Shown here: positions 27,552-51,391 of the stretch, in pieces
How the letters are laid out: the number at the start of each line of letters is the position of its first letter
Numbering within the stretch: the first letter of the stretch is position 1
Source of the DNA: Sedimentisphaerales bacterium
GTDB taxonomy: Bacteria > Planctomycetota > Phycisphaerae > Sedimentisphaerales > SM23-30
NCBI GenBank assembly: GCA_963667715.1
Contig: OY763926.1
Coordinates: forward strand, 2,138,201 to 2,202,200
DNA: 64,000 nucleotides
Reading direction: 5' to 3'
Translations under genes and position numbers: made by a program
Notes under the pieces: model-generated
What the model saw: only the letters and a program-made list of their open reading frames with translations
Databases searched by the model: none
What the model was told of the DNA's origin: nothing

Positions 27552-29765
27552 TTACAGTCCAAGGTCAAGTCTCAGCGTTCTGAACAGCCAACTCAGGAAT
27601 GTCTGCCCCAGTGTCTTATCTTCATAGTTGATCTTTATACGGCCGGTAAGGCCATCTCTCAAGCCGATACTGTCTTCACCGTCAATTGGTAGTACAAGCT
27701 CGTAAATATTGTCCGACGGCTTTAACAGCTGGTCATTATCTGTTGTTGGCTGGGTTGGTATATCACCATGGAATATCGTTGCAAAAGCAGGGGTGCTAAG
27801 CACTTCAGCCTTGGTATCCGGGATACTCTTTACCTTTGAAAGTATCATTTTATCGTCCATCGCCCATAGTTTTATCTGAGCTGTTTGACCGATCTCGGCA
27901 AATTCCATATCCTGTGACTTAACCGCTGCGACCGCCTCAAATTTACCCGGCTTACATACTGCCAGCAGTTCAGTGCCAACGTCAAGGTATGTACCTTCCA
28001 GCCAATCAAGCGGAATTGAATTTGTCAGCACTACAATACCGTCGATTGGAGACTTTATCTCCAGCCTTGATTGTTCCTGCTTTGCTCGTTCAAACTGAAG
28101 CTCTAACGCCAGATATTCTTCGTCCAGCTGTCTTTCTTCGATATCTCTACCTTGTTTCTTGGCTTCTTTACGCTTTATGTCAACTTGCTGTTTCTGTATC
28201 TCCAGGTCTTTTACCCCGTAGTTAAGTACCGGGTCGGTCAACCTGATTATCACATCCCCAGCCTTCACCGGCATACCATCATATGGCAACGCCAGACCGG
28301 AATCTGCTAATGATACAAATCCTGAGCGGTTCACATATAGCGGAGTAAGGTCTGCCGGACGTATTACACACTGGGTTTCTATACTCTGCTCCGTCGGTAT
28401 CCACGCTACGCCTACAATTGAACCAATCATCAGTACTGATATTACACTGGCCGTTATAGGGTGAATATTCAGTGAGTCCCATTGATTAAATAGGAACTTC
28501 ATTAGCTTGAACAATGGCAGTACGAACGATGCATATATTGACGATACTGCCAATACACCACCGATTACTCCCCAGCCGTAAGGGTCCAGAAACGTCCAAA
28601 CCATTACTATGATCGCGAACATAATGAACCATCTGTATATCGCACTTAGAATCGCAAAGCTGAATATGCCCAGCTCACGATTTTCTACATCAATTGGCTT
28701 TTCAGCTTTCTTTACGCCCAATACATATTTCTTACCTAAATACTGCAAGTAGTTCGTGGCCTTTTGCTTCATATTGGGTATTTCGAGCATATCCATCACG
28801 AAGTAATATCCATCATATCTCAGTAGGGGGTTGCCATTGAACATGATAGTATTTATACTTGCCGCCAGCATTACATTGAGGGCAAACTGATTGACAAGAT
28901 TGCCCGGAACGGTCAACGCCCATATCCACGTCGCCATTCCCGCTAAAAATACTTCTACCGCTATTCCTGCCGCCGTGATCCATACGCGCTTGTGCTTCTC
29001 GTTTATCATCCACGCGTCAGACACATCACAATACATCGCCGGCATAAATACCAGAAACAGCAAACCCATCTCATGTACTTCTGTCCCGAAGTGCTTCGCG
29101 ACCAGACCGTGACCAAACTCGTGTATGATCTTTATACAGAATAATGCTGGAAACAGAAACATTAGGTTAGTCCAGCTCAACAATGGCTGACGACCGCCCA
29201 GGTTATCGATATTTGAAAATAGCAAATATAGTGACCCGGTAAACATTAGTATTGTAAATATTACCATTGTCTTACTGAATATATATGGGCCTATTGTGCG
29301 GTTCATTTTTGTCAGCAGCTTATCAGGGTCCAGCAGGGGGATCTTATAGAACATATACTCAGTCTTGAGCTTCTGGAAGAAACTTCTGGTGAGCTGCTGC
29401 TTCCTGCTCAGTAAGTAATCGCTCGTATTATCTCCGCTGCCAATCAGTAGATTCCCACCACGCATCATAATGATAAAGCTCATTACTGCCTGAGCATCAT
29501 ATGTATCGTCAGGAAAACGCTCTGCCAATGCTTTTAACACATCTTCGATCGTTGTCTTACCGTTGAGCATCTTGAATATTGTATACTCCGGCGGACGCAA
29601 ACGGTAATATCTCAGGGTGGTTGGATCTTTCAGTACATAACATGGGTGGCCGTAATATACCTGTTCTGTGATCTCCAGATCGGCTCTTGCCTTTGGCAGC
29701 ACACCCGAATCTGAGTCCTTGTTTGATCTTGCTGATAATTTATCTATATCTATTTCTTGTGTCAT
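27552..29765 (-). CDS. Membrane M50-type zinc metalloprotease fused to a HlyD-like periplasmic adaptor, with an N-terminal PqqD/RRE-like domain
   Basis: 737 aa. HExxH sits in a TM segment (IKIIHEFGHGLVAKHFG), and there are multiple TM helices. C-terminal coiled coil (QKQQVDIKRKEAKKQGRDIEERQLDEEYLALELQFERAKQEQ) and barrel-sandwich motifs (VKAGDVIIRLTDP, IKSPIDGIVV) are typical of HlyD/MFP proteins. N-terminal YVLKDPTTLRYYRLRPPEYTIFKMLNGKTTIEDVLKALAERFP...VMSFIIMMRGGNLL resembles a PqqD-type peptide-binding domain. Confidence 0.8.
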   Translation of the reverse strand: MTQEIDIDKLSARSNKDSDSGVLPKARADLEITEQVYYGHPCYVLKDPTTLRYYRLRPPEYTIFKMLNGKTTIEDVLKALAERFPDDTYDAQAVMSFIIMMRGGNLLIGSGDNTSDYLLSRKQQLTRSFFQKLKTEYMFYKIPLLDPDKLLTKMNRTIGPYIFSKTMVIFTILMFTGSLYLLFSNIDNLGGRQPLLSWTNLMFLFPALFCIKIIHEFGHGLVAKHFGTEVHEMGLLFLVFMPAMYCDVSDAWMINEKHKRVWITAAGIAVEVFLAGMATWIWALTVPGNLVNQFALNVMLAASINTIMFNGNPLLRYDGYYFVMDMLEIPNMKQKATNYLQYLGKKYVLGVKKAEKPIDVENRELGIFSFAILSAIYRWFIMFAIIVMVWTFLDPYGWGVIGGVLAVSSIYASFVLPLFKLMKFLFNQWDSLNIHPITASVISVLMIGSIVGVAWIPTEQSIETQCVIRPADLTPLYVNRSGFVSLADSGLALPYDGMPVKAGDVIIRLTDPVLNYGVKDLEIQKQQVDIKRKEAKKQGRDIEERQLDEEYLALELQFERAKQEQSRLEIKSPIDGIVVLTNSIPLDWLEGTYLDVGTELLAVCKPGKFEAVAAVKSQDMEFAEIGQTAQIKLWAMDDKMILSKVKSIPDTKAEVLSTPAFATIFHGDIPTQPTTDNDQLLKPSDNIYELVLPIDGEDSIGLRDGLTGRIKINYEDKTLGQTFLSWLFRTLRLDLGL

Positions 29766-29924
29766 AACGCCTTTAGGTTCTTTGCTAAAATAGTCTTATG
29801 TATTCTTAAGCTCTCTATTCTATCATAAATAGTTACAATAGTAAATATCGGGTATGTAACATTATAGACTTACTTTTTATGAAAGATTATGCTTTATTTT
29901 TTGAATTCATATTAAACTGCGGGC

Positions 29925-29957
29925 AAAAAAAAACCGGGCTGGACAAGTCCAACCCGG
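29925..29957 (-). terminator. Rho-independent terminator (minus strand)
   Basis: On the minus strand, CCGGGTTGGAC (29957-29947) pairs with GTCCAGCCCGG (29944-29934) with one G-U pair, followed by a run of nine T (29933-29925). Confidence 0.75.
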
Positions 29958-30111
29958 AGTATTAGTTGTTTGTGAGCTTTCTACCCTTATGGATCATTAT
30001 TACCCAGAACAAAGCAGAAAAATCTACCCTTACCACCCCGGATAATCGCCTAAGCAGGCTCACTCCCAACATAGCATTCTATGTTTTGGGATTCTGCTCT
30101 TTTTTCCTTCT
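29925..30111 (-). ncRNA. Candidate structured small RNA or cis-regulatory leader of about 185 nt, class unknown
   Basis: A discrete unit with a sigma-70-like promoter (30117-30145) and an intrinsic terminator (29925-29957), and no ORF longer than 8 codons. Internal hairpin CCCAAAACAUAG/CUAUGUUGGG. Long-range complementarity GAGCAGAA/UUCUGCUU and GUGAGC/GCUCAC. Repeated UAAGGGUAGA. The segment CCGGGGUGG can pair with the 3' arm of the terminator (CCAGCCCGG). Confidence 0.35.
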
Positions 30112-30116
30112 CTATT

Positions 30117-30145
30117 AATATAGCTAGTTTTATCGGACTTTTCAA
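30117..30145 (-). promoter_or_regulatory. Sigma-70-like promoter TTGAAA-17 nt-TATATT (minus strand)
   Basis: The minus strand reads TTGAAA (30145-30140), a 17-nt spacer agtccgataaaactagc, and TATATT (30122-30117). The predicted start is near 30110. Confidence 0.4.
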
Positions 30146-30300
30146 GTTAATTTTGTAAAAAAGTGTAACAATGTAAAGCCTTGTTTTTCAATATATTATC
30201 GAATTTAACCTAAAATTAACGGGCCGACCATTCTTGGTTTAGTGTCCGGGATTATAATTTCTTCGGCATATTTACTATAGTTTAGGTTAGGTGGGCCCAG

Positions 30301-31227
30301 CTACTTCACCTTTATAAGATTATGAATTCTCGCAAAGTGGATCTTATAGCTGTTCCAATATCCCCAGGCAATTCCCAGGCTGCCAAACACCATGAAGGTA
30401 ATTGGCAATACTGTCTGAGCTGTGTTTTTTGGTGGTACCAATACCGGACTCACTCCAATAGATGCCAGGCTATCCCATATTGAGCTGCCACCGAACAGGT
30501 AAAAATATCCTGCTACAATAATTGGTACTGGCAGGTACGCTTTGCCCGTAGTACGAAAATATTGATGGCTTGCCATTACTGCCAGGAAAAACGCTGCTGT
30601 TACCGCAAATGCCTGCTGGCCAATAGAAACCGCTGTTGATAGTACGATTGTACTTCCTGCCGAAGACAAATATGACAGGTCACCCTTGCACAAATATGGT
30701 AATATTATTATAGCTATCAGACTTGTAGCAAAAGTGGCTGTTGCACATTTGGGGAATGTCACGTCAAACTTGACCTTATCAGCTATCTCGCTTACTTGCT
30801 GTTCCTTCTTTTTGACCATTTTGCCAAGTATTACAACTACCGCCAGACTCACTAAGATTGGAATATACCATAGTATCGCATCTACAAACATTAGTTTGAA
30901 CATATGCGATCTCGCCGCCTGCCCTTGATTGGCTACCAATAGATTATTAAGGTTATCTGAGTACACCGCCGGCAATGCAAGTACAAATGGGCCTGCCAGG
31001 GGGGCTATGTATCTTGTATTCTTACCTCCCAGGAAAAATGCCGCTGCTGCCGCTGCCGCCGCTGCTATTGTATACGTTAATATTGCCCCGTAACTGCCGG
31101 AAAATACAATGTTTATCGGCGTACCGCAATTATTGAACTGAAATCTCGAATTGATCGCCCAGCTTATTACGATTGCCAGTAGAATTATTGCCGTTATTCT
31201 TATTTTTGTTAGTATGTGTAATTTCAT
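30301..31227 (-). CDS. Polytopic membrane protein of unknown function
   Basis: 308 aa, strongly hydrophobic with about 8-9 predicted TM stretches and an Ala9 run. I recognise no family motif. Confidence 0.65.
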   Translation of the reverse strand: MKLHILTKIRITAIILLAIVISWAINSRFQFNNCGTPINIVFSGSYGAILTYTIAAAAAAAAAFFLGGKNTRYIAPLAGPFVLALPAVYSDNLNNLLVANQGQAARSHMFKLMFVDAILWYIPILVSLAVVVILGKMVKKKEQQVSEIADKVKFDVTFPKCATATFATSLIAIIILPYLCKGDLSYLSSAGSTIVLSTAVSIGQQAFAVTAAFFLAVMASHQYFRTTGKAYLPVPIIVAGYFYLFGGSSIWDSLASIGVSPVLVPPKNTAQTVLPITFMVFGSLGIAWGYWNSYKIHFARIHNLIKVK

Positions 31228-34656: not shown

Positions 34657-36408
34657 ATGGCAAAAAGAACCGAACCCAGATATGGTATCACAAAAGTTAA
34701 AACCGAGAATGGTCAAAATGTGAAATTGGTTAATGACTATAAGCAAAGACCGATTATGGATTTGATTTTTCAGCCATCTACCTACTACTATTTGCATAAG
34801 CGATGGAAAAATTTAAAAGCGAATGGCTACCCCAAAAACAAGTGGCACTATGGTTCCAACTTCGATATCGCCATAAAAGAGTTCAGATTAGTAGAAGCAG
34901 AATTAAGAAACAAAGATAACACATATATGCGGATTCCATATGATAGTATCAGAGAGATCGGGGAGGTCGGGGAGATAACCGAAAATAAGAGCAATGAGCA
35001 CTTTTCATCAGAATTGGCGTTAAGTTTTGCAATTCCATCTATAAATGAAACGTTAAAAATAGATAAAAATGCTCTTCTAGATATCGAATTTGTCGGTTTT
35101 TTGGAAGGAGCGAGAGAACATTTTTTGACAGCTTGTAAAAATGGCGATATAAAACCTGATGACTATGCCCCTTTATATCAATACTACAAAGAACAGGGGG
35201 CTATCATAGATGGCTTCCAGATGAACGAATCAGTCTTATATTCGTTAGTTAGAAATCTGTTAATTAATGACACCGACATGATAGCAGACAAGACAGGGCT
35301 ACCCTGCCTAAAGACCTTCCATGAACAACTAAGACAATATAAGGAGCCTTTGCCATTACTTTATACTGAGGTTCTTGAGACTTATATAGCTCAAGCGACT
35401 TGTGATGCTGGTACTAAGAACAGGGCGGTGAGATACTTTGAGAGATTTGTTGAAATTGTCGGAAAAAAGGACATGTCAAAAATCGATAAAAACGATGTCG
35501 CAAAATTCAAGAATTATCTGGATTCTCTTGTAAATTCAAGAAGCGGTAAAAAAGCATCAAACGTATCTTTGAACGCCTTTTCCAAAGATGTTAAAACAGT
35601 TCTTAATGCCTATGTAAATGAAGAAGATAGCAGCAAAGTAGAAGCGGCGCGGAATCTCGCAGAATTGATTAAAGATGGCATAGAAAGGAAGCAGACAAAG
35701 CCGAATAAAGTTCAAAAATGGGATGCTCACGCTCTATATGAGCTTTTCAATTTACCCCAAATTAAAAATGATAAGGTACTTAAATTGATGTTTTTGTTGA
35801 CTCTTAATTGCGGATGGAATTCTGTTGATGTGGCTAATTTTTCTAGGTCAGATGACAAAGAATCAAAGCATATATATCGAATAAAAGAACCGAATCCTAA
35901 CTTTAGCTATGGTTTAGAAGAAAATGAGACTAATAATAGATACCTAAAAGAACATATAATGATTGATTTTCCGCGTATAAAAATGAAATGCGTATATGAC
36001 AGACAATGTATTTTGTGGGAAAAGACAGCTGATTTGCTGGACGAATATTTAAAAGAAACTGCTGAGCTAAAAAGCGATTTTGTCTTTGTGAATCCTAAAA
36101 CAAAAACTAAATATTCCGACCAATATCTTTCTTGTAAATTCGGAGATTTTTTTGACAAGAAAAAATTAAATATGCCCAAAATTAAATTAGCTAATGACAG
36201 GAATGCCCTATTCAAACACCTGCGTTCAACACTATCTACTATCGCGCACGAGAACAGAGTGCAATATCTTGTAATAGACTTGTTTCTTGGACATTCTTTG
36301 AGAAAAGCAGGGGAGATTGGTTCTTATGTGGGCAATCTAGAAAAGGCACTCCATGAGATTGCCGATGGCGGCTACAATGATCTTAAGAATGTAATTGATA
36401 CGCTGTAG
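34657..36408 (+). CDS. Tyrosine-type site-specific integrase (long form)
   Basis: 583 aa. The C-terminal catalytic signature is LFKHLRSTLSTIA...DLFLGHSLRKAGEIGSYV (HxxR ... LGH ... Y). The gene sits next to the att repeat. Confidence 0.8.
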   Translation: MAKRTEPRYGITKVKTENGQNVKLVNDYKQRPIMDLIFQPSTYYYLHKRWKNLKANGYPKNKWHYGSNFDIAIKEFRLVEAELRNKDNTYMRIPYDSIREIGEVGEITENKSNEHFSSELALSFAIPSINETLKIDKNALLDIEFVGFLEGAREHFLTACKNGDIKPDDYAPLYQYYKEQGAIIDGFQMNESVLYSLVRNLLINDTDMIADKTGLPCLKTFHEQLRQYKEPLPLLYTEVLETYIAQATCDAGTKNRAVRYFERFVEIVGKKDMSKIDKNDVAKFKNYLDSLVNSRSGKKASNVSLNAFSKDVKTVLNAYVNEEDSSKVEAARNLAELIKDGIERKQTKPNKVQKWDAHALYELFNLPQIKNDKVLKLMFLLTLNCGWNSVDVANFSRSDDKESKHIYRIKEPNPNFSYGLEENETNNRYLKEHIMIDFPRIKMKCVYDRQCILWEKTADLLDEYLKETAELKSDFVFVNPKTKTKYSDQYLSCKFGDFFDKKKLNMPKIKLANDRNALFKHLRSTLSTIAHENRVQYLVIDLFLGHSLRKAGEIGSYVGNLEKALHEIADGGYNDLKNVIDTL

Positions 36409-36673
36409 TTTGGATTTGACAACTAATGCCTGGCTCTTAGTTGTTTTGCTAAAAATGTGTATTTCACCCTATTCCAGCAATATAATTTTAATTATAAGAT
36501 TTTGTTTCTCGTCTTTCTGGCAAGATTCTACGCTGTATTTAGGATTATTATCTATGTATTTTAATATCTTATTTTTAACATATTCCTGTTTATTATTCTG
36601 TTCTATATTTTCTGTTATTGCCATTTTTGCAACTCATTATCTTGGAGATATTTGGACAAATTATAAAATAATT

Positions 36674-37273
36674 CTATTGGTGTTTTCTAATAATAGAATA
36701 TATAGTTGGTATAGAAATACCGACAGTTCGGCTAATTTCAGCTTTTGAGAGTCCTTGTTGTAGTAATGCCAGAACAGGTTTTATCTTGCAAGCTGTTTTA
36801 GGTTTTACCCCTTTTTTGCTTCCTCCCCATATCTTCCCTCTCGCCTTTGCAGCAGCTTGTCCGGATGTCACTCTTTCAGCTCTAATTTCTGTTTCATACG
36901 CAGATACTGAGGCGATTATGTTGGCATTCAATCGTCCGGCAGGGGTGCTCAAATCCAAATGGTCTTTAAGGCTGATTAGATTACACTGGAAATGTTGAAG
37001 TTCTTCGAAAAGCTTAGTTAGCCCTGATGCTGTTCTGCCTAAGCGATCCAGACGATATATAACAATCTGGTCTATTTTAGAATTACGCAGATCTTCCAAA
37101 AGTTTTGACATTGCGGGTCTATCCATACTTTTACCAGTAAACTTGTCTTTATACCATTTTACATTATGCGGTTGATGGGTATCAATCCATCTAGTCAATT
37201 CATCTTCCTGGCTGTCAAGTTTCTGCTGAATTGTGGAGATACGACAATATATTGCTGTTATTTTCTTACTCAT
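36674..37273 (-). CDS. Serine recombinase (resolvase/invertase family)
   Basis: 199 aa. The N-terminal catalytic motif is AIYCRISTIQQ, followed by VIYRLDRLGRT. The C-terminal HTH is LSKAEISRTVGISIPTIYSII. Confidence 0.9.
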   Translation of the reverse strand: MSKKITAIYCRISTIQQKLDSQEDELTRWIDTHQPHNVKWYKDKFTGKSMDRPAMSKLLEDLRNSKIDQIVIYRLDRLGRTASGLTKLFEELQHFQCNLISLKDHLDLSTPAGRLNANIIASVSAYETEIRAERVTSGQAAAKARGKIWGGSKKGVKPKTACKIKPVLALLQQGLSKAEISRTVGISIPTIYSIIRKHQ

Positions 37274-37783
37274 AGCTCTACCTCGAATCGATAAAAATCA
37301 TCTTTACTTCATTTTTTATGCTTTACGTTATTAAAAAGCGGGGTTTATGCTTCAAAATGGCATGTTAGCAAACCAATATTCATTTTTTATGGTTTTATAG
37401 TGTTTTACAGTGTTAGTTTGTTTCAAGTTTAGATTTCAAGCCGAAAACCATTAATATTAATTGTAGTCAAAAAAGTGGAAATTAATAGTAAATAAACAAA
37501 AAACTATACAAGAAAGTATATTTAATGTTAGCTTGTGTCAAATGTGGAATTTTTCTATACTTTATGCCAAATATGTAACTTATCTCTATTGGTCGATGAA
37601 TCTGTTTAATGCAGCTAGATTTTTCCCAAAATAATAATAAAAATAATATTTATTCTTGGTATTTGATGATAATTATATTGAAATATGTCTTTGACTTAAG
37701 TGTTGCAAATAGTTATTATAGATATTTGTTCTAACTATTTATTATAAGGGATTTTATATTGATTTTCAAGGCGTAATAATGAT

Positions 37784-40700
37784 ATGGCTAGTGAGTTTAT
37801 AACTAATAAAGATAAAAAATTATCAGATGTAATTAATAACATATTGCCAGCAACTGACAATTTGTATTTTCTGGTTGGTTATTTTTACTTTTCCGGCTTC
37901 GAGAAAATATACAAGCAAGTTATTGATAAGAAATTGAAAATACTAGTTGGGCTTCAAATTGAAATCGATTTGACGAACAGAATCAAAGAGTTGTATTTTC
38001 TTGAAAAATTGAATATTTCTAGGGCTAAAGTAAGGGATAATTATCTTCAATCAATAGTTGATGTATTTAATGAAACTGATATATTTGATACTGAAGAAAA
38101 ACAAGATGCTTTCAGGCTATTTATCGATAAAATTCATGATGGAACCATGGAAATAAGAAAAACTCAGGAATCAAATCATGCAAAATTATATATCTTCGAG
38201 AACAAAACGGAGCAAAATCATGGTGGGGAATTTCTGGGGACAGTTATTACAGGCTCAAGCAATCTAACACATTCAGGACTTGAGGGAAGGTTTGAGATCA
38301 ATGTCAGCTTGAGGGATAATTATAACTTTACGCTAGCCCAAAATCTCTTTCTTGAGCTATGGGAAAAATCAGTCGTAATCGTTGATGAGAATAATAAAAA
38401 TGATTTTTTGAATAAGGTTGTAGAAAAAATATGGCTAGATAAGCTGCCAAAGCCTTTTTTACTTTATATAAGAGTTCTTGCCGAATATTTTGCGGAGCAA
38501 GAAGAGTTAATTACGCTGCCTGCTGATATTACTGATGGAAAATATTTTAACTTTAAGTATCAAGTAGATGCAATTAAAAGAGCTATTGGTATTATTGAAC
38601 GTCATAATGGTGTTATAGTTGCTGATGTAGTAGGTCTTGGGAAAAGTATTATTGCTTCTACCGTTGCTCATAATTTAAATCTAAAAACCATTGTAATAGC
38701 TCCTCCACATCTTGAACAGCAGTGGAATGACTATAGATATGAGTTTAGCTTCAATGCCAAGGTGTATAGTTCTGGTAAAATAAAAACGGCATTGGAAGAA
38801 AATCTTGATGATGAACAAAAGCTTATAATCATTGACGAAGCTCATAAGTACAGAAACGAATTAAATGCGGATTATGCCTATTTGCACCAGTTATGCCAGC
38901 AAAACAAGGTAATGCTTCTCACGGCTACGCCTTTTAATAATCGTCCTCAAGATATATTTTCTATGATTAAGTTGTTCCAGATACCCACACGGTCAACTAT
39001 AAGAACAATAGAGAACTTGTCTTATCAGTTTTATAGTTTAATACTGCGTTATAAAGAAATCAAAAAGATACAGCGTAGTAAAACTGAAAGTCAGCAAGAA
39101 ATAGAAAAACGCATTAATGAAGTTGCTAATGAGATCAGAGATATACTTTCCCCTCTGATCGTTAGAAGAAGTCGTTTAGACCTTGAGGCTATTGAGGAGT
39201 ATAAGGAAGATTTAGTTCAGCAAAATATATCATTTCCTGTTGTAAATGATCCGATTGAACTTGAATATAACCTTGATGATATAGAAGAGCTGTATGCAAA
39301 TACATTGCATAAAATTTGCCCCCAGAACGAAGATGAAGGTTTTATCGGTGCACGATATATGCCGGTTAACTATGTAAAGAATTTTGATAAATACAAAAAG
39401 AATATAGCTAAAGATATGGGGATCGACGAGAACTTGTTAAAGCAATCACAGGTTAACTTAGCAAAATTTATGCGGAGGCTTTTAGTTAGAAGATTTGAAA
39501 GTTCAATGGAATCATTTAGGCTGTCTCTAAGGTCGATGATAAAATCTTCTGAGACTATTGAAAGCTGGTATGAAAAGAAGGGCGGAGTACCTGTTTTTAA
39601 GAAAGGTGACCTCCCTGGTCCTGAAGATTTACTTAATCTTACAGGTGATGATGCTCTCAAAACTCTTGATGAATTACTTGAAGATGAAAAACTGGACAAA
39701 TACGTTCAGCGTGGGTTATGGTTTATTGAGAAAAAAGAACTTAAGGTAGGCTTTATCCTTCAAGTTAAAAAGGATATTCAGCTACTTAAGGAGATATATA
39801 ATGACTGGTTCGGCAATAGAATTATTTCTGATCCAAAGCTTAGTCATTTTACAGAGCTAATTAAATCCCAATTAAGAAGTGATCCAACAAGAAAAATAGT
39901 AGTATTCACTGAATTTGCCGATACCGCAAATTACTTATATGAATCTCTCAAGGATGGTTTAAGGATATTCAAATACTCATCATCTGATAATACTAAAGAA
40001 AATAAGCAGACTATCAGATCGAACTTTGATGCTGGTTATGACAAGCCAGAAAATGATTTTGATATTTTGATTGCAACAGATGCGATATCTGAAGGTTATA
40101 ATTTACATCGAGCAGGTACAATATTTAATTATGATATACCATATAATCCTACAAGAGTAATTCAGCGCGTAGGTAGAATTAATCGAATAAACAAAAAAGT
40201 CTTTGATGAGTTGTTTATCTATAATTTCTTTCCTAGTGCTACAGGCGAAAAAGAAACTCACATTAAAGAAATTGCTACTCTAAAAATGGATATGATACAT
40301 GCCTTGCTTGGTGAAGATACCATGGTTTTGACAGATCAGGAGAAGCTTGGTTCTCGCTTTGCGGTACAGTTCAAGGAACAAATTGGTAAACAGGAACAGT
40401 TATCACCTGAAGCAAAGTACGAAAATCTGATAAAGAATTACAGAGCATATAATCAAGATATTATAAATGAAGCTCTTGCAGTTCCGAAAAGAGTAAAAAT
40501 TAAACGTTCATTCAAAAAGGATGAGGATGGAGTTTTATTATTTGCCCGCAAAGGGAAAGAATACGTATTCAAGCTTACAAAACCGGAGGGTGAATCAACG
40601 AATCTGACCTCAGCTAAAGGTTTAGAATTATTTGAAGCAGAACTACAGGAAGACCCGCATGAGGTTTCAAAAGTATTTGATAAAGTTTACCAGATTGCAA

Positions 40701-41023
40701 AGTCAAATCTCTTTATTACCAAGACCGTGATGACAAAAGATAAAGGCAAAAAAGATGCTATAGCAAAATTGAAATTGCTGAAAAAAGACTTTTCTCAATA
40801 TCGTGACTATCTTGAAGATTTGGTATATGTTGCTGAAAAGCTGGATGCATTGCCGGAAAGATACCTGAAAATGATACGGGCTATTAGCATAGATACAATA
40901 GAACAGGATATGAACAGTTTTATTGATGAAGTATCTACCACATATCTTAGTAAAATAATTGATCGTGAACAAGCTATAGCAAATGAGAAGGAATCCCTAA
41001 TCATAGCAGAGGAATTGATTTAA
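37784..41023 (+). CDS. PLD-like nuclease domain fused to an SNF2/DEAH-family helicase
   Basis: 1079 aa. The N-terminal HKD-like motif is NHAKLYIFE...GTVITGSSNLT. Helicase motifs: I ADVVGLGKSIIA, II IIIDEAHKYRN, III LLTATPFNN, VI VIQRVGRINR. Confidence 0.85.
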   Translation: MASEFITNKDKKLSDVINNILPATDNLYFLVGYFYFSGFEKIYKQVIDKKLKILVGLQIEIDLTNRIKELYFLEKLNISRAKVRDNYLQSIVDVFNETDIFDTEEKQDAFRLFIDKIHDGTMEIRKTQESNHAKLYIFENKTEQNHGGEFLGTVITGSSNLTHSGLEGRFEINVSLRDNYNFTLAQNLFLELWEKSVVIVDENNKNDFLNKVVEKIWLDKLPKPFLLYIRVLAEYFAEQEELITLPADITDGKYFNFKYQVDAIKRAIGIIERHNGVIVADVVGLGKSIIASTVAHNLNLKTIVIAPPHLEQQWNDYRYEFSFNAKVYSSGKIKTALEENLDDEQKLIIIDEAHKYRNELNADYAYLHQLCQQNKVMLLTATPFNNRPQDIFSMIKLFQIPTRSTIRTIENLSYQFYSLILRYKEIKKIQRSKTESQQEIEKRINEVANEIRDILSPLIVRRSRLDLEAIEEYKEDLVQQNISFPVVNDPIELEYNLDDIEELYANTLHKICPQNEDEGFIGARYMPVNYVKNFDKYKKNIAKDMGIDENLLKQSQVNLAKFMRRLLVRRFESSMESFRLSLRSMIKSSETIESWYEKKGGVPVFKKGDLPGPEDLLNLTGDDALKTLDELLEDEKLDKYVQRGLWFIEKKELKVGFILQVKKDIQLLKEIYNDWFGNRIISDPKLSHFTELIKSQLRSDPTRKIVVFTEFADTANYLYESLKDGLRIFKYSSSDNTKENKQTIRSNFDAGYDKPENDFDILIATDAISEGYNLHRAGTIFNYDIPYNPTRVIQRVGRINRINKKVFDELFIYNFFPSATGEKETHIKEIATLKMDMIHALLGEDTMVLTDQEKLGSRFAVQFKEQIGKQEQLSPEAKYENLIKNYRAYNQDIINEALAVPKRVKIKRSFKKDEDGVLLFARKGKEYVFKLTKPEGESTNLTSAKGLELFEAELQEDPHEVSKVFDKVYQIAKSNLFITKTVMTKDKGKKDAIAKLKLLKKDFSQYRDYLEDLVYVAEKLDALPERYLKMIRAISIDTIEQDMNSFIDEVSTTYLSKIIDREQAIANEKESLIIAEELI

Positions 41024-41024
41024 T

Positions 41025-44000
41025 ATGAAATATGATTTTAATGCCAAATACCATAGAAGTAATTTTTTGAATTTCCTTAAAAACGATTTTCTCCCAGACG
41101 ATCTTGAATTGTTTGATGAGAAAATTGACCTTGAATTTGCTCCAAACCATATTCAGACTGTTGCTAAAGTTGGCGAGGTGAAATCATTAGGTCTGACCGT
41201 TTTTGAAGTATTGCATAATTCAGAAAATGATCCAAGAGTAACACTATCTAGAGATGTATTCAGATTGATAAGTAATCTGTCAATAGAGCGTGCTTTGGTG
41301 GTTTTTCATACTAATAAGAGTGAAAACTATCGGTTGTCTCTAGTTACCATTGAGTTTAAGCTCAATAAAAATAAATTGACAAGAGAATATTCAAACCCGA
41401 AAAGATATTCATATTTTCTTGGTCCTAGAGCCAAAACTAATACTCCAGAACAATTTTTAACCAAGGGAAGAGTTTCATCGTTAACAGAACTCCAGAATTG
41501 TTTCTCGATCGAAGTTGTAAACCGGCAGTTTTATCAGGAAATTGCTACAGTCTTTACAGAACTTACTGGCGGGCAAAGAGATATCGGCAGCAGGCATATC
41601 GACGCAGGTAACGGGTGTCTGATTATACCCGGAGGAAACAATGAAAAAACAAGGAAAGAATTTGCGGTTCGTTTAATAGGTCGTTTAGTGTTTTGCTGGT
41701 TTCTTAAAAAGAAAATATCAAGTAATAATGTTCCATTAATTCCAGATGATGTATTATCTTTACAGGCATTGAATGAGAATTCTAATTATTATCATTATAT
41801 TCTTGAACCACTATTCTTTGAAACTCTAAATAAGAACTTAGAGCACAGGCATCCGAAATATCAAACAAAACCTTGGGATATAATACCATTTCTAAATGGA
41901 GGGTTATTTGATCCACATGAGGAAGATTATTATGAATTTGACAGGATCACGGGAGTATCAGGCAAGTACATTAATATATTAAAAGTACCAGATGAGAAAA
42001 TTAAGGAATTAGTAACAATATTTGAAACCTATAATTTTACCATTGACGAAAATACTTCAGTTGATATTGAACTCTCTATTGATCCTGAAATGTTAGGGAG
42101 AATATTTGAAAATCTTCTAGCTGAAATTAATCCAGAAACAGGTGAAACAGCCAGAAAAGCAAGCGGTAGTTATTATACACCAAGAGAAGTTGTTGACTAT
42201 ATGGTTGATAAAAGTCTCGAACATTACCTTATTGCTAATCTTGGAATTGAGCATACTAGTGATGTTAAATCATTATTAAACTATGTTGAAGACTCCCCAT
42301 CTATTAGTGAAGAGATAGTTGATAAAGCTCTCGATGCACTTTACAATATAAAAATTCTTGACCCAGCCTGTGGTTCAGGTGCTTTTCCTATGGGGGTTCT
42401 GCAAAAGATACTTCTAATATTGCAAAAACTAGACCCCGAATCAGGGAAATGGCTTGAAAGACTTCTTGATGACATAGATGATGAAACTGTCAAAGAATAT
42501 CTTAGGACTCATATGAATACGGACTATATTCATAAATTAGGTATGATAAGAGACTCTATTTATGGAATCGATATTCAGCCTATAGCAACTGAAATTTCAA
42601 AGCTTAGAGTCTTTTTATCTCTTATTATTGAAGAGAATATTAAAGACGGAGAACCCAATAGGGGGATTGAACCTCTCCCTAACTTGGAATTTAAGTTCGT
42701 TTGTGCCAATACCCTTATTAGCCTTGGAGAACAAATCGATTTTACTAACAATGATAAAGCATTAAAACTTCAAAAGAAACTTGAAAGAATACGGAAAAAG
42801 TATCTCAGTAGTTCTGGCGAATCTAAGCAAAAAATCAAAGATGAGTATAAAAATATTAAAGATAAATTATTTAATGAAGTTATTGGATTGATGTGGTCAA
42901 AAGCAAGTAAAAGGATGGAACAACTATCTACTTGGAATCCTTTTGCAGATGAGCCTTGTGGCTGGTTTGACTCAAAATTTATGTTTGGTGTTGACAAAGG
43001 CTTCGACATAATTATAGGAAACCCTCCCTATATAAAAGAATATACAAGTAGAGCAGCATTCGATGGGGTCAGAGAAGAACAGTACTACCAAGGTAAAATG
43101 GATATTTGGTATTTATTTGCTTGCAATGCTATTGATTGGTTAAAGAATAATGGAGTTCATTGTTTTATTGCAACAAATAATTGGATAACTAATGCCGGAG
43201 CATCAAAGCTAAGAAATAAAGTAGTAAACGAAACTAACATTCTTCAGTTTGTTGATTTTGGCAATTATAAAATATTTGATAATGCTGACATTCAAACAAT
43301 GGTTTATGTATTGAGTAAATCTAAAAGACCAAAAAAATACAGTGTGAATTATTCGAGGTTAAATAATCCTAATGTAACTAGAGATTACTTAAGCACTTTC
43401 TTGAAATCAGATTTTCAGACGGATAATTATACAAAGAGGGATGTTGAGTTTGATAGAGCTAAATTCAAGGATAAATATATTTCATTTTGCGAAAGTAATA
43501 CTGAAGTTGTATTAAAAAAAATCTTAGATAAAAGTAATTTTAATTTTACTAATGATGAAGTTGCACAAGGTATTGTTGCTCCGCAAGACTTTGTTAATAG
43601 AAAAAGTGCAAGTAAGTTAGGTAATAAATATAAAATTGGATTTGGGATATTTGTTCTTTCTGACGAAGAGAAAAATACTCTTAACCTTGATGAGGCTGAA
43701 CTCAAATTACTAAAGCCATATTATACATCTAATGAGCTATTTAAATATTACGGCAATCGTAATAATCAGCAATGGGTAATCTATACTCGTTCAAATATTA
43801 ATAGTACAATTGATGACTACCTAAATATTAAAGAACATTTAGATAGATTTGCTTCCGTAATCACCTCTGATAATGCGCCTTATGGATTACATAGAGCAAG
43901 GAAAGAACACTTTTTTCAAGATGAAAAAATAATATCCATTCGTAAATGTAGTGAACCAAGTTTTACCTACACAGATTTTGATTGTTATGTATCACAAACA

Positions 44001-44333
44001 TATTTTGTGATCAGAACACACAGGCTAAATATGAAATATTTAACTGGATTCATGAATAGTAAAATTGTTAAGTTCTGGCTTAAAAATAAAGGAAAGATGC
44101 AAGGAGATAATTATCAGGTGGATAAAGCTCCATTGATGAGCATTCCAGTCATGAGACCATCTACGGAAATTCAAAACAAAATTGAAGAGATGGTTGATAC
44201 GATCATTGAATTAAGAGCAAATAGCCATGACGATAATATCCCTAAACATGAAGATTCAATAAATACGATAGTATTTGACATGTTTGATCTTAGTGATGAT
44301 GATATTGCTATTATTGAGGATTCTATTAAATAA
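41025..44333 (+). CDS. Eco57I/PglX-like N6-adenine DNA methyltransferase (large form, no recognisable nuclease domain)
   Basis: 1102 aa. Motifs: GSYYTPREVVDYMV, the SAM-binding motif ILDPACGSGAFP, and the catalytic motif IIIGNPPYIKEY. A long C-terminal region is compatible with a target-recognition domain. The start lies 1 nt after the helicase stop. Confidence 0.85.
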   Translation: MKYDFNAKYHRSNFLNFLKNDFLPDDLELFDEKIDLEFAPNHIQTVAKVGEVKSLGLTVFEVLHNSENDPRVTLSRDVFRLISNLSIERALVVFHTNKSENYRLSLVTIEFKLNKNKLTREYSNPKRYSYFLGPRAKTNTPEQFLTKGRVSSLTELQNCFSIEVVNRQFYQEIATVFTELTGGQRDIGSRHIDAGNGCLIIPGGNNEKTRKEFAVRLIGRLVFCWFLKKKISSNNVPLIPDDVLSLQALNENSNYYHYILEPLFFETLNKNLEHRHPKYQTKPWDIIPFLNGGLFDPHEEDYYEFDRITGVSGKYINILKVPDEKIKELVTIFETYNFTIDENTSVDIELSIDPEMLGRIFENLLAEINPETGETARKASGSYYTPREVVDYMVDKSLEHYLIANLGIEHTSDVKSLLNYVEDSPSISEEIVDKALDALYNIKILDPACGSGAFPMGVLQKILLILQKLDPESGKWLERLLDDIDDETVKEYLRTHMNTDYIHKLGMIRDSIYGIDIQPIATEISKLRVFLSLIIEENIKDGEPNRGIEPLPNLEFKFVCANTLISLGEQIDFTNNDKALKLQKKLERIRKKYLSSSGESKQKIKDEYKNIKDKLFNEVIGLMWSKASKRMEQLSTWNPFADEPCGWFDSKFMFGVDKGFDIIIGNPPYIKEYTSRAAFDGVREEQYYQGKMDIWYLFACNAIDWLKNNGVHCFIATNNWITNAGASKLRNKVVNETNILQFVDFGNYKIFDNADIQTMVYVLSKSKRPKKYSVNYSRLNNPNVTRDYLSTFLKSDFQTDNYTKRDVEFDRAKFKDKYISFCESNTEVVLKKILDKSNFNFTNDEVAQGIVAPQDFVNRKSASKLGNKYKIGFGIFVLSDEEKNTLNLDEAELKLLKPYYTSNELFKYYGNRNNQQWVIYTRSNINSTIDDYLNIKEHLDRFASVITSDNAPYGLHRARKEHFFQDEKIISIRKCSEPSFTYTDFDCYVSQTYFVIRTHRLNMKYLTGFMNSKIVKFWLKNKGKMQGDNYQVDKAPLMSIPVMRPSTEIQNKIEEMVDTIIELRANSHDDNIPKHEDSINTIVFDMFDLSDDDIAIIEDSIK

Positions 44334-44351
44334 AATTTTGTGAGAGTTTTT

Positions 44352-46325
44352 ATGGCACGAAAAAAAGTAACAGCAGGTAAAGACTTTATACAAAAAATTG
44401 GTATCACTGATCCAATTTCTGCTTTAGCTGAGTTGATTTGGAATTCCTTTGATGCTGGTGCCAATACTGTTGAAGTAGTTCTTCGCTCAAATGGTACTGG
44501 AGCAGTCCAGGATATAGAGATAATAGATGATGGTGAAGGGATTGCATACGAGGAACTTGCTCAGGCATTTGGTAACCTTGGCAATTCTAAAAAACTTACT
44601 AATAAAGAAACGGTCAATGGGAGATTAGTTCACGGCAAAGAGGGCAAAGGGAGATTTAAGACTTTTTCATTATGTAATAAGCCTATATGGGTAACTGTGT
44701 TTAAAAATGACAATGAATATTATAAGCATATAATATCTATTGATAATGTCTTTTCAGATGAATATGACGACTCAGATCCAGAAGTCTCCCCGCTAAAGAA
44801 AACTGGAACAACAGTTATTCTTAAAGATATCCTGCAAGGACAGAATTCATTAGCAAGGGATGATGCGAAAATAAAGGTCGCAAAGCATTTTGTTTTGTAT
44901 TTACTTAATTATCCAGGACTATCACTTGTTTTTGACTCACGCAAAATCGTTATTGATGATTTTATTAAAACCAAAAAAACATACAATCTACCTACGGGAA
45001 ATAATGATAAGCTTACTGTAATTGAATGGAACGAAAGACTTGAGAGTAAACAATTACATCTGTGCAATGAGCATGGTTTTTGTCGGCATGAAATTGCTGC
45101 TGGGGTACATGCTCCTGGAATTGAATATTCAGCCTACCTGCAATCAACAATGATTGAAGATGTATATAATTCAGGGAATTTAGGCTTGGGTGATATGAGT
45201 TTAGACCTGATAAAGCTCATTGATGTTGCTAAAGATACTATCAGGGATCATATTCGTAAGCGTCTGGCAGAAGAAGCTGGTGATATTGTTAAAGAGTGGA
45301 AAGAGCAAAACATATATCCATATTCAGATGACGAGCCAACCGGACCAATAAAAGAAGCTGAAAGAGAAGTCTTTGATATTGTTGCTATAACGATCAATGA
45401 GCAGCATCCGACATTTAAGCGAAATGATCTCTCAAATAAAAAACTAACTCTGGCTTTAGTTAAGCAGGCATTAGAAACAAATCCATCTGGCATTTCCAAG
45501 ATACTTCAGGAATTGCTATCTTTACCTAAAGAAGAACAAGATGGTTTGGTAGAGCTACTGCAAAGAACCACCTTGAGTTCCATTATTAAAGCCAGTTCAG
45601 TCGTTGCAGATCGCTTAGATGCCATTGGAGCATTTGAGCATATTATCTTTAATAGTAATTGGAAGAAGACTCTTCTGGAAAGAACGCAACTTCATAGACT
45701 GCTTGTGCATCATCTTTGGATTTTTGGAGAAGGTTATACGTTGGATAGTGACGATGAGTCATTAACTGCTATTCTTGAAAAGCATATTAAGAAACTTGGC
45801 AGAAAGAAAATTATTGAGGATGTAAATGTTAAAACAGTATCAGGAATCAATGGTATTCCTGACCTATTGCTTTCAAAACAATTTACTCATTCCCATGAAT
45901 TATTTGAAAATCTTGTAATTGAACTTAAAAGACCCTCAATTAAACTTGGTAATACTGAATTGACACAGATAGAAGATTATGCTATTACAGTTTCAGAAGA
46001 TGAAAGATTCGATACAGATAGATACAAATGGAAGTTTATTTTAGTTGGGAATAATTATGATAGGTTTGTGAAAGCAAAAATCAACCAACCACGTTTTCCT
46101 AAATATTGCTCTATGGACTCTGGAAATGTACAGGTTTATGTTAGAACTTGGGCAGATATTTTCGCTGATGCTAAATTGAGATATAAGTTTTTTAGTGAAA
46201 AGCTTGAGATTGAAGCTAAAACCGAAAGTGGTATGGCAAATTTTCAAGAGAAGTATGGTCATTTGATTACCGGGAATGGTATGTCTAAGAAGAAGGAAAA
46301 AGAAGCAGGTAAGGCTCCCAAATAA
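44352..46325 (+). CDS. GHKL-type ATPase (HATPase_c_3-like) fused to a PD-(D/E)xK nuclease-like C-terminal domain
   Basis: ATG 44352, with GTG 44340 also possible. Bergerat-fold boxes: ALAELIWNSFDAGA (N box), IEIIDDGEGI (G1), HGKEGKGRF (G2). The C-terminus WIFGEGY...GIPDLLLSKQF...ENLVIELKRPSIKLG...QIEDY fits a D...E-x-K nuclease core resembling DUF4263/Shedu-type domains. Confidence 0.75.
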   Translation: MARKKVTAGKDFIQKIGITDPISALAELIWNSFDAGANTVEVVLRSNGTGAVQDIEIIDDGEGIAYEELAQAFGNLGNSKKLTNKETVNGRLVHGKEGKGRFKTFSLCNKPIWVTVFKNDNEYYKHIISIDNVFSDEYDDSDPEVSPLKKTGTTVILKDILQGQNSLARDDAKIKVAKHFVLYLLNYPGLSLVFDSRKIVIDDFIKTKKTYNLPTGNNDKLTVIEWNERLESKQLHLCNEHGFCRHEIAAGVHAPGIEYSAYLQSTMIEDVYNSGNLGLGDMSLDLIKLIDVAKDTIRDHIRKRLAEEAGDIVKEWKEQNIYPYSDDEPTGPIKEAEREVFDIVAITINEQHPTFKRNDLSNKKLTLALVKQALETNPSGISKILQELLSLPKEEQDGLVELLQRTTLSSIIKASSVVADRLDAIGAFEHIIFNSNWKKTLLERTQLHRLLVHHLWIFGEGYTLDSDDESLTAILEKHIKKLGRKKIIEDVNVKTVSGINGIPDLLLSKQFTHSHELFENLVIELKRPSIKLGNTELTQIEDYAITVSEDERFDTDRYKWKFILVGNNYDRFVKAKINQPRFPKYCSMDSGNVQVYVRTWADIFADAKLRYKFFSEKLEIEAKTESGMANFQEKYGHLITGNGMSKKKEKEAGKAPK

Positions 46326-46343
46326 TTTTTTGTTATTACCGTA

Positions 46344-46380
46344 CCCCCATCCCCATCCCCTTGGGATCGATTACCTCCCC
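46344..46380 (-). repeat. C-tract cluster (G-tracts on the minus strand) directly after the operon
   Basis: The plus strand has ccccc at 46344-46348, cccc at 46351-46354, cccc at 46357-46360 and cccc at 46377-46380, including the tandem ccccat ccccat. This is conspicuous in an otherwise AT-rich island. Confidence 0.5.
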
Positions 46381-47275
46381 TAAGTTTGACAGGGACTCTA
46401 AAGTTCGGCTTTTGAGCCAGGATTTTTTATGCTCAATATTAATAAGAATTTCCCTTATTCTTGTAGGGTCATGTTGTTTGATTTATTTGCCTTAATGGTC
46501 GCCGATACGCTGTCGCTACCGCTTTTTTCCGAAGACTTAATCCCCTTGTGTCTTTGGTTGAGCGTGGGTGCTGGGGGCGATCCTAGGCGTTTTCTGTGCG
46601 TAGGTGAAATTCTTGTGTGAAAATAGGTTATGTGATAACCTAAAAACGCATAAAATTGCTTTATGGTAACTAATTATTTCACTATAGTAGCTTTTTTCGT
46701 TAAAATGCCGAAATCACTGGCGTAAATACTTCTAAATTTCGACATTTAATTGATTAATTATTAATCTTAATCCAATGGTACTTGGTCTCAGCATAAATCA
46801 AGTAGCCGTTTTGGTTCTGAAGGAAGCGGAATCAATCGAGAGAGAAAGAGACTAGTTATACAAAACTGGTTTCTGTATGTAGATAGTGTCCGTGTAGATA
46901 CACATGAAATAAGGGTAAATTGGGGCGAAAAATGAGGGTGCAATTGAGTTTATTGAATGGCAAAAACTTCATTAAATTTCAAAATATCTTTTAGTATCTC
47001 CATGTATTAGAATCACCCATAATAGCTCATTATAGCGGTTTATATGGAACTTCGCCCTAAGTTGATTCTGTGGACAGAAACAAGTGTGTACGCATATATA
47101 TACTTATTTCTCTCGCGCTCCCCTGGGGGTTCTATTGAGAAAAAGAGGAGATAGATCAGAGTAGTTGAATGAGTGTGAGTATTCAAAGGTTCGTCAGTTA
47201 GCGGAATTATTGGCGACAGAATAGACCATAAATAAGAAAGTAGGATAAATGTAATGTTATTAAAGGATAAATAAA

Positions 47276-49009: not shown

Positions 49010-49313
49010 TGGCAATACTATAGTGATAATCGAGATATTATAGTAAGGCTACTGAGTTACAGTTAAGCAAATAGCAACGATAGTGTTTTTCATCTACGCA
49101 GGAGGCAATCTAGTACGTTTTACATTTCCATAATTTAATATTGAAAAAGCATCTATTCCTTATATTAGTTAGATTGCTACGTATCAACCAACTAGTTATA
49201 AGGATGAGTATTATGAATAATTATGAAATTCATTTTCGGTTTAATGGAAGTTTTTATAAGGAGCTGATTACCTGTCAAAATGGCTTTAAAGCTCGTGATC
49301 TGATAAAAGCTAA

Positions 49314-50678: not shown

Positions 50679-50750
50679 AAAGCTAAGTATCCTGGTGCGC
50701 AGATTACTTCTGTTTCTCATATTAAATAAAATCAAAAACTAATCTGAATT

Positions 50751-50796
50751 AGACCATTGAGCTGAACTGGGATACGCTTAATGGTCTTATTTTTTA
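50751..50796 (+). terminator. Possible terminator of the IS-disrupted small ORF
   Basis: agaccatt (50751-50758) pairs with aatggtct (50780-50787), followed by tatttttt. The loop is long, so this call is weak. Confidence 0.35.
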
Positions 50797-51064
50797 ATAA
50801 ATCTTTTGTCCCAATGAAAGGAGTGGTAGAGAACGTAATTTGTTATACCTGGAGTAATTTTATAGTTCCGGTAGCGTAGATAATTAGGTAAACAGTTTTG
50901 AACATATCAATGAGCTATTATGGAAATTCTGCAATAATGACCAAGATCGCCGTCAGGTATATGATACATCTGGTAAGTTATATCTGTTGACCACACCTGG
51001 TTAGATTTATCTTTTTCGCTAAATGATTGACTTTTACCGCTGATAATCTTTCGATTTGATGAAA

Positions 51065-51086
51065 GTCGAAACCTTTGTCGAAACCT
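51065..51086 (+). repeat. Tandem GTCGAAACCT x2 with 12-bp phasing (candidate arm-type sites, right end)
   Basis: gtcgaaacct occurs at 51065-51074 and 51077-51086. Related tttcga/tcgaaa elements lie immediately around it. The same core occurs in the left-end repeats. Confidence 0.5.
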
Positions 51087-51156
51087 ATTGATTTCGATGG
51101 ATATGTGACTAAAACATCTATTATAGCCCAATTACCTATAGAAAAAGGACTTATGC

Positions 51157-51206
51157 AATCGGGCTGACAGGATTCGAACCTGCGACCTTTTGACCCCCAG
51201 TCAAAC
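51157..51206 (-). repeat. att-type direct repeat within the intact tRNA-Pro
   Basis: Partner of 34471-34520, with 49 of 50 positions identical. Confidence 0.9.
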
Positions 51207-51233
51207 GCGCTAGCCAAGCTGCGCCACAGCCCG
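51159..51233 (-). tRNA. tRNA-Pro (anticodon GGG)
   Basis: Minus-strand sequence: CGGGCTGTGGCGCAGCTTGGCTAGCGCGTTTGACTGGGGGTCAAAAGGTCGCAGGTTCGAATCCTGTCAGCCCGA. It folds as a cloverleaf: acceptor CGGGCTG/CAGCCCG, D stem GCGC/GCGC, anticodon stem TTTGA/TCAAA, loop CU-GGG-GG, T arm GCAGG-TTCGAAT-CCTGT. CCA is not encoded. Confidence 0.9.
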
Positions 51234-51391
51234 ATATCTCAAATATTTCTATATGAGAAGTGCATAATATTAATCATAAATACTATTTCAGTCAAGTGAT
51301 AAATATGGAAGTATAAAGCAAGTAAGTGCAAGATAAGTAATTGCAAATCAGTATGATATGAGCAAGTAGCTGCCGGTATCCTAGTAGTTTC

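Follow-up and report, generated by a model that had tools for sequence, protein, structure and literature searches.

We analysed a 64,000-nucleotide (nt) stretch of contig OY763926.1 (GCA_963667715.1) from a Sedimentisphaerales bacterium, hereafter the window, in which an intergenic region on the minus strand lies between two genes of the same orientation. The upstream gene (31227-30301) encodes a polytopic, helical orphan membrane protein of 308 amino acids (aa), and the downstream gene (29765-27552, hereafter the M50 gene) encodes a 737-aa fusion protein in which Pfam recognizes a PqqD-like domain, an M50 metalloprotease domain, and an HlyD-type barrel-sandwich domain. A preliminary description had proposed that the region between them contains a self-contained promoter-to-terminator unit for a structured RNA of about 185 nt, acting either as a riboswitch or attenuator leader of the downstream operon or as an independent small RNA (sRNA). 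The existence of such a unit is borne out by conserved signals, compensatory changes in the terminator, conservation of the core, and the recovery of a fold with two helices, P1 and P3, and the sRNA alternative fits the comparative data. The element is a conserved, non-coding, structured transcription unit with a single copy per locus, the transcription of which is predicted.

Homologs of the RNA were sampled from contigs encoding close relatives of the M50 or the membrane protein, which were searched by nhmmer. In total, 10 RNA copies from approximately four lineages were compared, i.e. the copy in the window and those in nine other contigs: L001 (5610-5828), L081 (1266-1491), L082 (2615-2843), L083 (2621-2829), L084 (2685-2887), L085 (2627-2835), L088 (2740-2960), L089 (5085-5290), and L087 (1-130). 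The last copy is cut by the contig end, and the other nine are full length; counts given below for the RNA promoter refer to the nine full-length loci and those for the terminator to all 10. The homologs were aligned (alignments A2, A3, and A5), and a covariance model (R1) was built. Two clades are distinguished below, namely the window-type RNAs (five in the pairing test) and the L083-type RNAs. Lack of conservation in relatives, which had been named in advance as evidence that would speak against the unit, was not encountered, since the unit is present in nine other Sedimentisphaerales contigs.

The predicted promoter of the RNA (30145-30117, minus strand) consists of a -35 hexamer TTGAAA (30145-30140) and a -10 hexamer TATATT (30122-30117) separated by 17 nt, as the preliminary description had stated. 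It matches 10 of 12 consensus positions and ranked first among the seven sites returned by a consensus scan of the 1-kilobase region, in which 2.9 sites were expected. The spacer contains a box, GTCCGATAA, at 30138-30130. All nine full-length homologs keep the pattern TTGAAW, a GTCC(G/C)ATAA spacer box, and TATAWT with a spacing of exactly 17 nt, and they do so within an AT-rich spacer that otherwise does not align.

At the other end, the linker UAAUACU (29964-29958) is followed by a hairpin, CCGGGUUGGA-CUUG-UCCAGCCCGG (29957-29934), whose stem of 10 pairs includes 7 G-C pairs and whose loop is CUUG, and directly thereafter by a U9 tract (29933-29925). The strong intrinsic terminator that had been placed at 29957-29925 is thus confirmed as a hairpin of 10 pairs plus T9; it is present in 10/10 homologs, with 6-9 nt of linker before it, and terminator scans of the distant homologs L001 and L083 also recover it, with the promoter at equivalent positions. 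Five pairs of the terminator stem are altered on both sides with pairing kept (alignment A3), and such paired changes are a signature of selection on RNA structure, as read from the aligned sequences. Transcription is predicted to start approximately 7 nt past the -10 hexamer, near 30110, a site inferred solely from the position of that hexamer, and to yield an RNA of approximately 184-186 nt in the window and of 165-195 nt in the relatives. The full predicted RNA folds with -63.4 kcal/mol (z = -3.9), and none of 200 dinucleotide shuffles folded as well. A short non-coding transcript therefore appears to be delimited by a promoter and a Rho-independent terminator of its own, both of which are predicted signals.

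The order membrane gene, RNA, M50 gene is found in every locus that is long enough, and the genes farther out vary. The M50 orthologs adjoining the RNA, as one does in every RNA-bearing locus, are 67-81% identical. R1 recognizes exactly one copy of the RNA per locus, with scores of 118-162 bits, and the remainder of the 64-kb window gave no further match to it. The RNA is missing from 10 further M50 loci; nine of these (L002-L009 and L086) have M50 orthologs that are 50-57% identical, and in these nine the RNA was found by neither nhmmer nor R1. In L002-L009, an HlyD-like gene directly abuts the M50 gene in place of the RNA. The membrane gene is present in 9/9 loci that reach far enough upstream and is absent from the loci without the RNA; the distribution of the RNA equals that of the orphan membrane protein. 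A pattern scan of Joint Genome Institute (JGI) metagenomes gave six matches, with approximately six expected by chance, none of which was accompanied by the other motifs or recognized by R1, and no match to the RNA was found in viral contigs, plasmids, or phages. As judged from these searches, the RNA is so far known from one narrow clade of Sedimentisphaerales (Planctomycetota, Phycisphaerae).

Between genomes, the core of the RNA has a mean identity of 0.80 (range 0.68-0.97). The corresponding mean for the M50 gene is 0.69 when all nucleotides are counted and falls to 0.43, a value close to saturation, at third-codon positions, and the remaining intergenic region is not alignable among the homologs. 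By this comparison of sequences, the core is under purifying selection and more conserved than the adjoining coding DNA.

The conserved structured core comprises 110 nt in the window (30074-29965) and 90-110 nt across homologs. It is closed by helix P1, which is composed of P1a (GUUG, 30070-30067, with CAAC, 29968-29965), a 3x3 internal loop (GGA, 30066-30064, opposite AAA, 29971-29969; consensus GGA opposite RAA), and P1b (GUGAGC, 30063-30058, with GCUCAC, 29977-29972; consensus GUGRGC/GCUCAC). In L001 and L088, a U replaces the middle G of the internal-loop GGA and would form a pair with the A across from it. On its 5' side (30057-30047), the junction contains an invariant CUUAGGC, and the 'P2' that can be drawn there has only 2 base pairs (bp). 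P3 is formed by AUUAUCCGGGG (30046-30036) and UUCUGGGUAAU (30009-29999), with the consensus AUUAUYCGG and a partner ending in GGRUAAU. Its tip (30035-30010) is variable in length and forms an extra 8-bp hairpin in the window-type RNAs, which is absent from the L083 type, where the tip is 19 nt shorter. The 3' side of the junction, J3/1 (29998-29978, approximately 20 nt), begins with an invariant GAUCCAU (29995-29989) and continues with a variable half. CUUAGGC and GAUCCAU are both invariant unpaired stretches.

This fold was recovered in several ways. RNAalifold returned P1a, P1b, and P3 both with and without flanks, and P1 (P1a and P1b) closes the minimum-energy fold in 8/8 cores folded singly (z from -1.7 to -2.6). 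Pairing in the named structure amounts to 97.1% on alignment A3, compared with 26-43% when the 3' partners are slid, and none of 500 shuffles matched its pairing or covariation score. P1 is unchanging except for an A-U to G-U replacement at one pair. In P3, six of nine pairs vary and 98.9% of the cells remain paired, with a both-side change at one pair, in few and closely related sequences.

Upstream of the core lies a purine-rich, variable leader of approximately 36 nt (30110-30075), which contains an AAAGAG box (30102-30097). The leaders are 36-46 nt long across homologs and align poorly; AAAGAG recurs (as AAUAAG in L082), and the L083 clade carries AAGGA(C)GAGGA at the 5' end. In the window, the leader can form a 5' hairpin with the beginning of the core, P0, in which 30090-30079 (CCCAAAACAUAG) pairs with the CUAUGUUGGG arm (30074-30065). 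The pairings listed in the preliminary description are all physically present in the window sequence, but only GUGAGC/GCUCAC is kept in all relatives. The CCCAAAACAUAG/CUAUGUUGGG hairpin exists as described, but it is significant in only three of nine RNAs: P0 pairing beats the shuffles in the window, L081, and L082 (P <= 0.003) and is not significant in the other six, and P0 as a general switch was rejected on these grounds. The complementarity of GAGCAGAA and UUCUGCUU and the duplication of UAAGGGUAGA are likewise real, but neither occurs beyond the window and its nearest relative, and both were rejected as general features; UUCUGCUU sits in the P3 tip and is missing from the L083 clade. The partner of the variable 3' half of J3/1 (29978-29988) differs by clade. 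In the window-type RNAs this half can pair with the 3' arm of the P3 tip, and this accounts for the UAAGGGUAGA duplication; in the L083-type RNAs its possible partner is a 5' CGCUAUG, and in L089 the P3 loop CACUAUG. This clade-dependent pairing may represent an alternative fold, a pseudoknot, or a coincidence.

The earlier statement that the interval has no open reading frame (ORF) longer than eight codons is incorrect, because the minus strand holds a 36-codon ATG ORF inside the core (30072-29962) and a 31-codon TTG ORF (30145-30050). The non-coding nature of the region is nevertheless upheld, since the 36-codon ORF is not conserved in the relatives. L001 has a stop at codon 6, L085 at codon 15, L083 and L084 at codon 20, and L081 at codon 24; in L088, CTTTG replaces CTATG and the ATG is lost; and the indels of 1, 2, and 19 nt in the core alignment shift the frame. 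No alternative frame on either strand is open across all homologs, and the ORFs on the opposite strand and in other frames were rejected in view of the same indels. Conservation of the region is at the nucleotide level, not at the amino-acid level. The element is thus regarded as non-coding because stops and frameshifts break the 36-codon ORF in the relatives.

A gathering-threshold search of the whole window with the 4227 models of Rfam 15 returned only a tRNA-Pro (51159-51233). At E <= 10, the interval 29700-30350 gave only terminator-driven matches of 10-19 bits, compared with thresholds of 35-100. No Rfam 15 family matches the RNA, in agreement with the earlier failure to match it to riboswitch, 6S, signal recognition particle (SRP), RNase P, or transfer-messenger RNA (tmRNA) consensus sequences. 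In a full-text literature search, no sRNA or riboswitch candidate was found described for Sedimentisphaerales or matching the element. Collections of candidate structured RNAs have been obtained by Weinberg, Breaker, and colleagues through comparative genomics of intergenic regions and are now in Rfam (PMC2864571, PMC5737381). The RNA shares with the orphan motifs of these collections a conserved intergenic location, helices, conserved junction nucleotides, a terminator, and restriction to one lineage; it differs in that it has no Rfam 15 match, comes from Sedimentisphaerales, and has approximately 10 representatives. It is most suitably classed as a new family of an already known type, i.e. 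a lineage-specific small structured RNA.

The two neighbouring genes differ in how widely they are distributed. The 737-aa M50-PqqD-HlyD protein has >2500 relatives, mostly in Planctomycetota, the nearest of which are from Sedimentisphaerales metagenome-assembled genomes. The best NCBIfam matches of its M50 part are the daptide and YydH/LiaK maturation metalloproteases of ribosomally synthesized and post-translationally modified peptides (RiPPs), both under the cut-off (157 vs 300 bits). No precursor-peptide gene was found beside the M50 gene in the window; in L087 and L088, it has a radical-SAM gene as a neighbour. A full-text search of the literature on the M50-PqqD-HlyD context found nothing. 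The membrane protein (approximately 310 aa across loci) has just eight relatives among 5.8 billion proteins, and a profile search gave the same eight. It belongs to no Pfam or NCBIfam family and has no PDB relative, and its AlphaFold model (predicted local distance difference test score, pLDDT, 49.6) is too poor for a fold search.

Several further features of the membrane gene were observed. In the public annotation it is called from a later start, giving a 200-aa product (P0122). An apparent promoter (approximately 40 nt upstream) has a -10-like TATTCT/TATAAA element, the end of which is, in several loci, separated from the ATG by only a few bases; such proximity hints at a leaderless mRNA. 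After the stop codon, a motif of the form (C)TGG-NN-C-Y-ACCA, e.g. CTGGGCCCACC, CTGGACCTACCA, and TGGTACTACCA, is found in all nine loci, in the window at approximately 30290-30300 on the minus strand. The motif occurs again a few bases past the U-tract of the RNA in L001, L083, L085, L087, L088, and L089, though not in the window, where the strict pattern has just one unrelated extra copy.

With moderate confidence, we interpret the element as an independent, clade-specific gene for a small structured non-coding RNA. The RNA would be transcribed from its own sigma-70-type promoter and would end, constitutively, at the strong intrinsic terminator, and the M50 gene would be expressed from a conserved extended -10 promoter of its own and not by read-through. 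From 5' to 3', the predicted molecule would consist of the purine-rich leader, P1 with its 3x3 loop, a large and near-invariant junction or internal loop carrying CUUAGGC and GAUCCAU, P3, and the terminator with its U-tail. It may act in trans via the near-invariant junction nucleotides, through either protein binding or base pairing to mRNAs encoded elsewhere. Since invariance extends even to the helix sequences, a surface that binds a protein or ligand is no less likely than a simple antisense seed. The strict co-occurrence with an orphan membrane protein beside a RiPP-type M50 protease/exporter fusion suggests, from gene order, that the regulated process involves this locus.

An independent promoter, a length of 165-195 nt, and a purine-rich (ARN-like) 5' segment are features that the RNA has in common with trans-acting sRNAs of the Hfq or ProQ type, as are the GC-rich terminator hairpin, which follows an A/U-rich linker and carries a long U-tail, and the conserved unpaired stretches, which could be seeds. 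It differs from them in that conservation is not limited to one seed but covers helices and junction alike and in that no target complementarity was found in the neighbour genes.

Several points weigh against the interpretation as an independent structured RNA gene. Neither the two neighbouring genes nor their translation-start regions were found to contain a conserved complement of the invariant loops, and the duplex energies of the RNA with the translation-start regions were not consistently better than those of shuffles. Both ends of the transcript are predictions from sequence. The invariance of P1 makes its pairing compatible with the alignment, not proven by covariation, and the support for P3 comes mostly from one-sided wobble changes; moreover, 10 sequences in approximately four lineages provide low statistical power. 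Covariation thus does not prove the core fold, consistent and plausible as it is, because P1 is near-unvarying, P3 varies via wobble, and the lineages are few. Finally, the adjacency and co-orientation with the M50 gene in 10/10 loci, the junction-centred conservation, and the start of the terminator 6-9 nt past P1 are features like those of a cis-acting aptamer.

These last features lead to the alternative that the RNA is a cis-acting leader, i.e. a riboswitch or a protein- or ligand-dependent attenuator, in which a signal would remodel the core and read-through would add regulated M50 expression atop that from the proximal promoter. We consider this rather unlikely. Like terminating riboswitches, the RNA has a closing P1, a conserved multi-strand junction, a variable peripheral helix (the P3 tip), a terminator soon after P1, and a co-oriented gene directly downstream. 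It differs from them in lacking a conserved anti-terminator and an overlap between aptamer and terminator, in the promoter that intervenes before the gene, and in matching no known aptamer class.

The question of an anti-terminator was addressed by comparing the duplex energies of competing pairings with those of dinucleotide shuffles in nine RNAs. The geometry proposed in the preliminary description, in which CCGGGGUGG matches the 3' arm of the terminator at eight of nine positions, is real, but it occurs in one subclade only and is marginal against shuffles. CCGGGGUGG is part of a single conserved P3 sequence shared by the five window-type RNAs, in which its pairing with the 3' arm has energies of -11 to -16 kcal/mol (P = 0.03-0.10), whereas the L083-type RNAs lack the segment and give nothing comparable for their 3' arm, with P = 0.15-0.50 at a different site. 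CCGGGGUGG was rejected as an anti-terminator for these reasons. The competition of P0 with P1 in three genomes would also suit a leader, but no pairing that competes with the terminator is kept across both subclades, and the 5' arm of the terminator has no significant upstream partner in 8/9 RNAs. A conserved, mutually exclusive pair of terminator and anti-terminator structures, as expected of a terminator riboswitch, is absent. Because no conserved competing structure exists, termination of the RNA looks constitutive. In addition, the terminator does not overlap P1, so that neither of the usual riboswitch geometries applies.

The region between the terminator and the M50 gene also argues against a leader. 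The second promoter noted previously, TTTACT-17-TAGAAT with an extended TG, lies at 29845-29817 and is conserved, as a predicted signal, at every locus. With the preceding CGATA (29850-29846), the element spans 29850-29817, with the -35 hexamer TTTACT at 29845-29840 and the extended -10 TGATAGAAT at 29825-29817, and all loci, L087 among them, have the form TTTACT-17-TG-n-TA(A/G)AAT in the interval from the RNA terminator to the M50 start, usually with CGATA before it. The RNA would thus not form a 5' untranslated region (UTR) free of an intervening promoter, as expected of a terminator riboswitch, and the M50 gene is probably driven by its own extended -10 promoter rather than by read-through, because the RNA terminator looks constitutive. 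The M50 ATG lies 160 nt past the U-tract in the window, as had been stated; across loci the gap is 110-190 nt and mostly unconserved. Furthermore, the M50 orthologs of other Sedimentisphaerales are preceded directly by an HlyD-like gene and lack the element. In sum, the riboswitch or attenuator reading of the preliminary description was not supported: no conserved competing pairing exists, the terminator is apart from P1, and a separate M50 promoter is predicted everywhere.

The sequence (C)CGATA is common to both conserved promoters, being located in the spacer of the RNA promoter, just past the -35 hexamer (GTCCGATAA), and directly upstream of the M50 -35 hexamer, and is possibly the site of a common regulator. 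L001 and L088 do not have CGATA at the M50 promoter, and no further convincing sites of this type were found in the window, so that a wider regulon motif was not upheld.

As a sub-case of an independent RNA, the molecule might sequester a protein in the manner of 6S, CsrB/Rsm, or Y RNAs, with the conserved internal loop as a titrating dock, which we regard as unlikely. The arrangement of a stem, a large asymmetric conserved loop (approximately 11 nt opposite 21 nt), and a second stem, with conservation highest in the loop, fits this idea; the invariance of the helix sequence suits protein contacts better than an antisense seed; and GGA motifs are carried by the leader, by the P1 internal loop, and, within the window-type clade, also by the top of the terminator. 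Similar to 6S RNA, it is an independent gene of approximately 185 nt with two helices around a large conserved internal loop. However, no 6S, Rsm/Csr, or Y-RNA model of Rfam matches even at E <= 10; the structured core extends over only 90-110 nt; and no closing stem joins the 5' end to the 3' end, so that the molecule is not the rod that 6S RNA is. Its minimum-energy folds are multi-branched, with the leader hairpin and the terminator separate. The GGA motifs number only two or three per RNA, the one in the terminator is missing from the L083 clade, and CsrB/Rsm sponges carry many of them in hairpin loops. The restriction to one clade is also unlike a housekeeping RNA.

It is distinctly unlikely that the RNA is a free-standing, new aptamer-like fold that senses a small molecule, peptide, or protein tied to the PqqD-M50-HlyD and membrane proteins and acts in trans; if this were true, it would be a ligand-responsive sRNA that has co-evolved with a peptide-maturation locus in Planctomycetota.

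An origin as the 3' UTR, or a processed 3' fragment, of the membrane-protein mRNA, with the terminator merely ending that gene, is very improbable. The two lie on the same strand and strictly co-occur, and in the window the stretch from the membrane-gene stop codon to the RNA promoter showed no minus-strand terminator. Evidence against this explanation, which the preliminary description had named as one that would undermine its proposal, is provided by the near-consensus RNA promoter, kept with exact spacing in 9/9 loci inside an unalignable AT-rich spacer, and by a hairpin followed by T8 that L001 and L088 carry between the membrane gene and that promoter, which argues against a 3'-UTR origin. 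That the region is instead a small protein gene, with the 36-codon ORF encoding, e.g. a RiPP precursor peptide for the adjacent PqqD-M50-HlyD protein, is scarcely credible, even though the ATG ORF exists, the neighbour has a PqqD/RRE-like domain and an M50 domain nearest to RiPP maturation proteases, and RiPP clusters commonly have precursor genes with a strong promoter and terminator of their own before the processing genes, since the ORF is cut, shifted, or deprived of its ATG in the relatives and conservation follows nucleotides with no frame open across the homologs.

Elsewhere in the window, a low-GC island (34657-51234) has a GC content of 32-35%, compared with approximately 41-44% in its flanks. 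It contains genes for a PLD and SNF2 helicase fusion (37784-41023), an Eco57I/MmeI-type methyltransferase (41025-44333), a HATPase_c_3 protein (44340-46325), and, on the minus strand, an IS256/Mutator-family transposase (49382-50614), and its end coincides with the tRNA-Pro(GGG) gene (51158-51234). In gene content, the island looks like a restriction or defence island inserted beside a tRNA gene.

To our knowledge, almost no regulatory RNAs have been characterized in Planctomycetota. The candidate described here is now delimited, with predicted ends, a consensus fold, 10 representatives, and a working covariance model, and could enter RNA family databases. If the RNA regulates or partners the locus in which it resides, it would offer a handle on an uncharacterized gene pair that is widespread in Planctomycetota; otherwise, it would be another lineage-specific sRNA.

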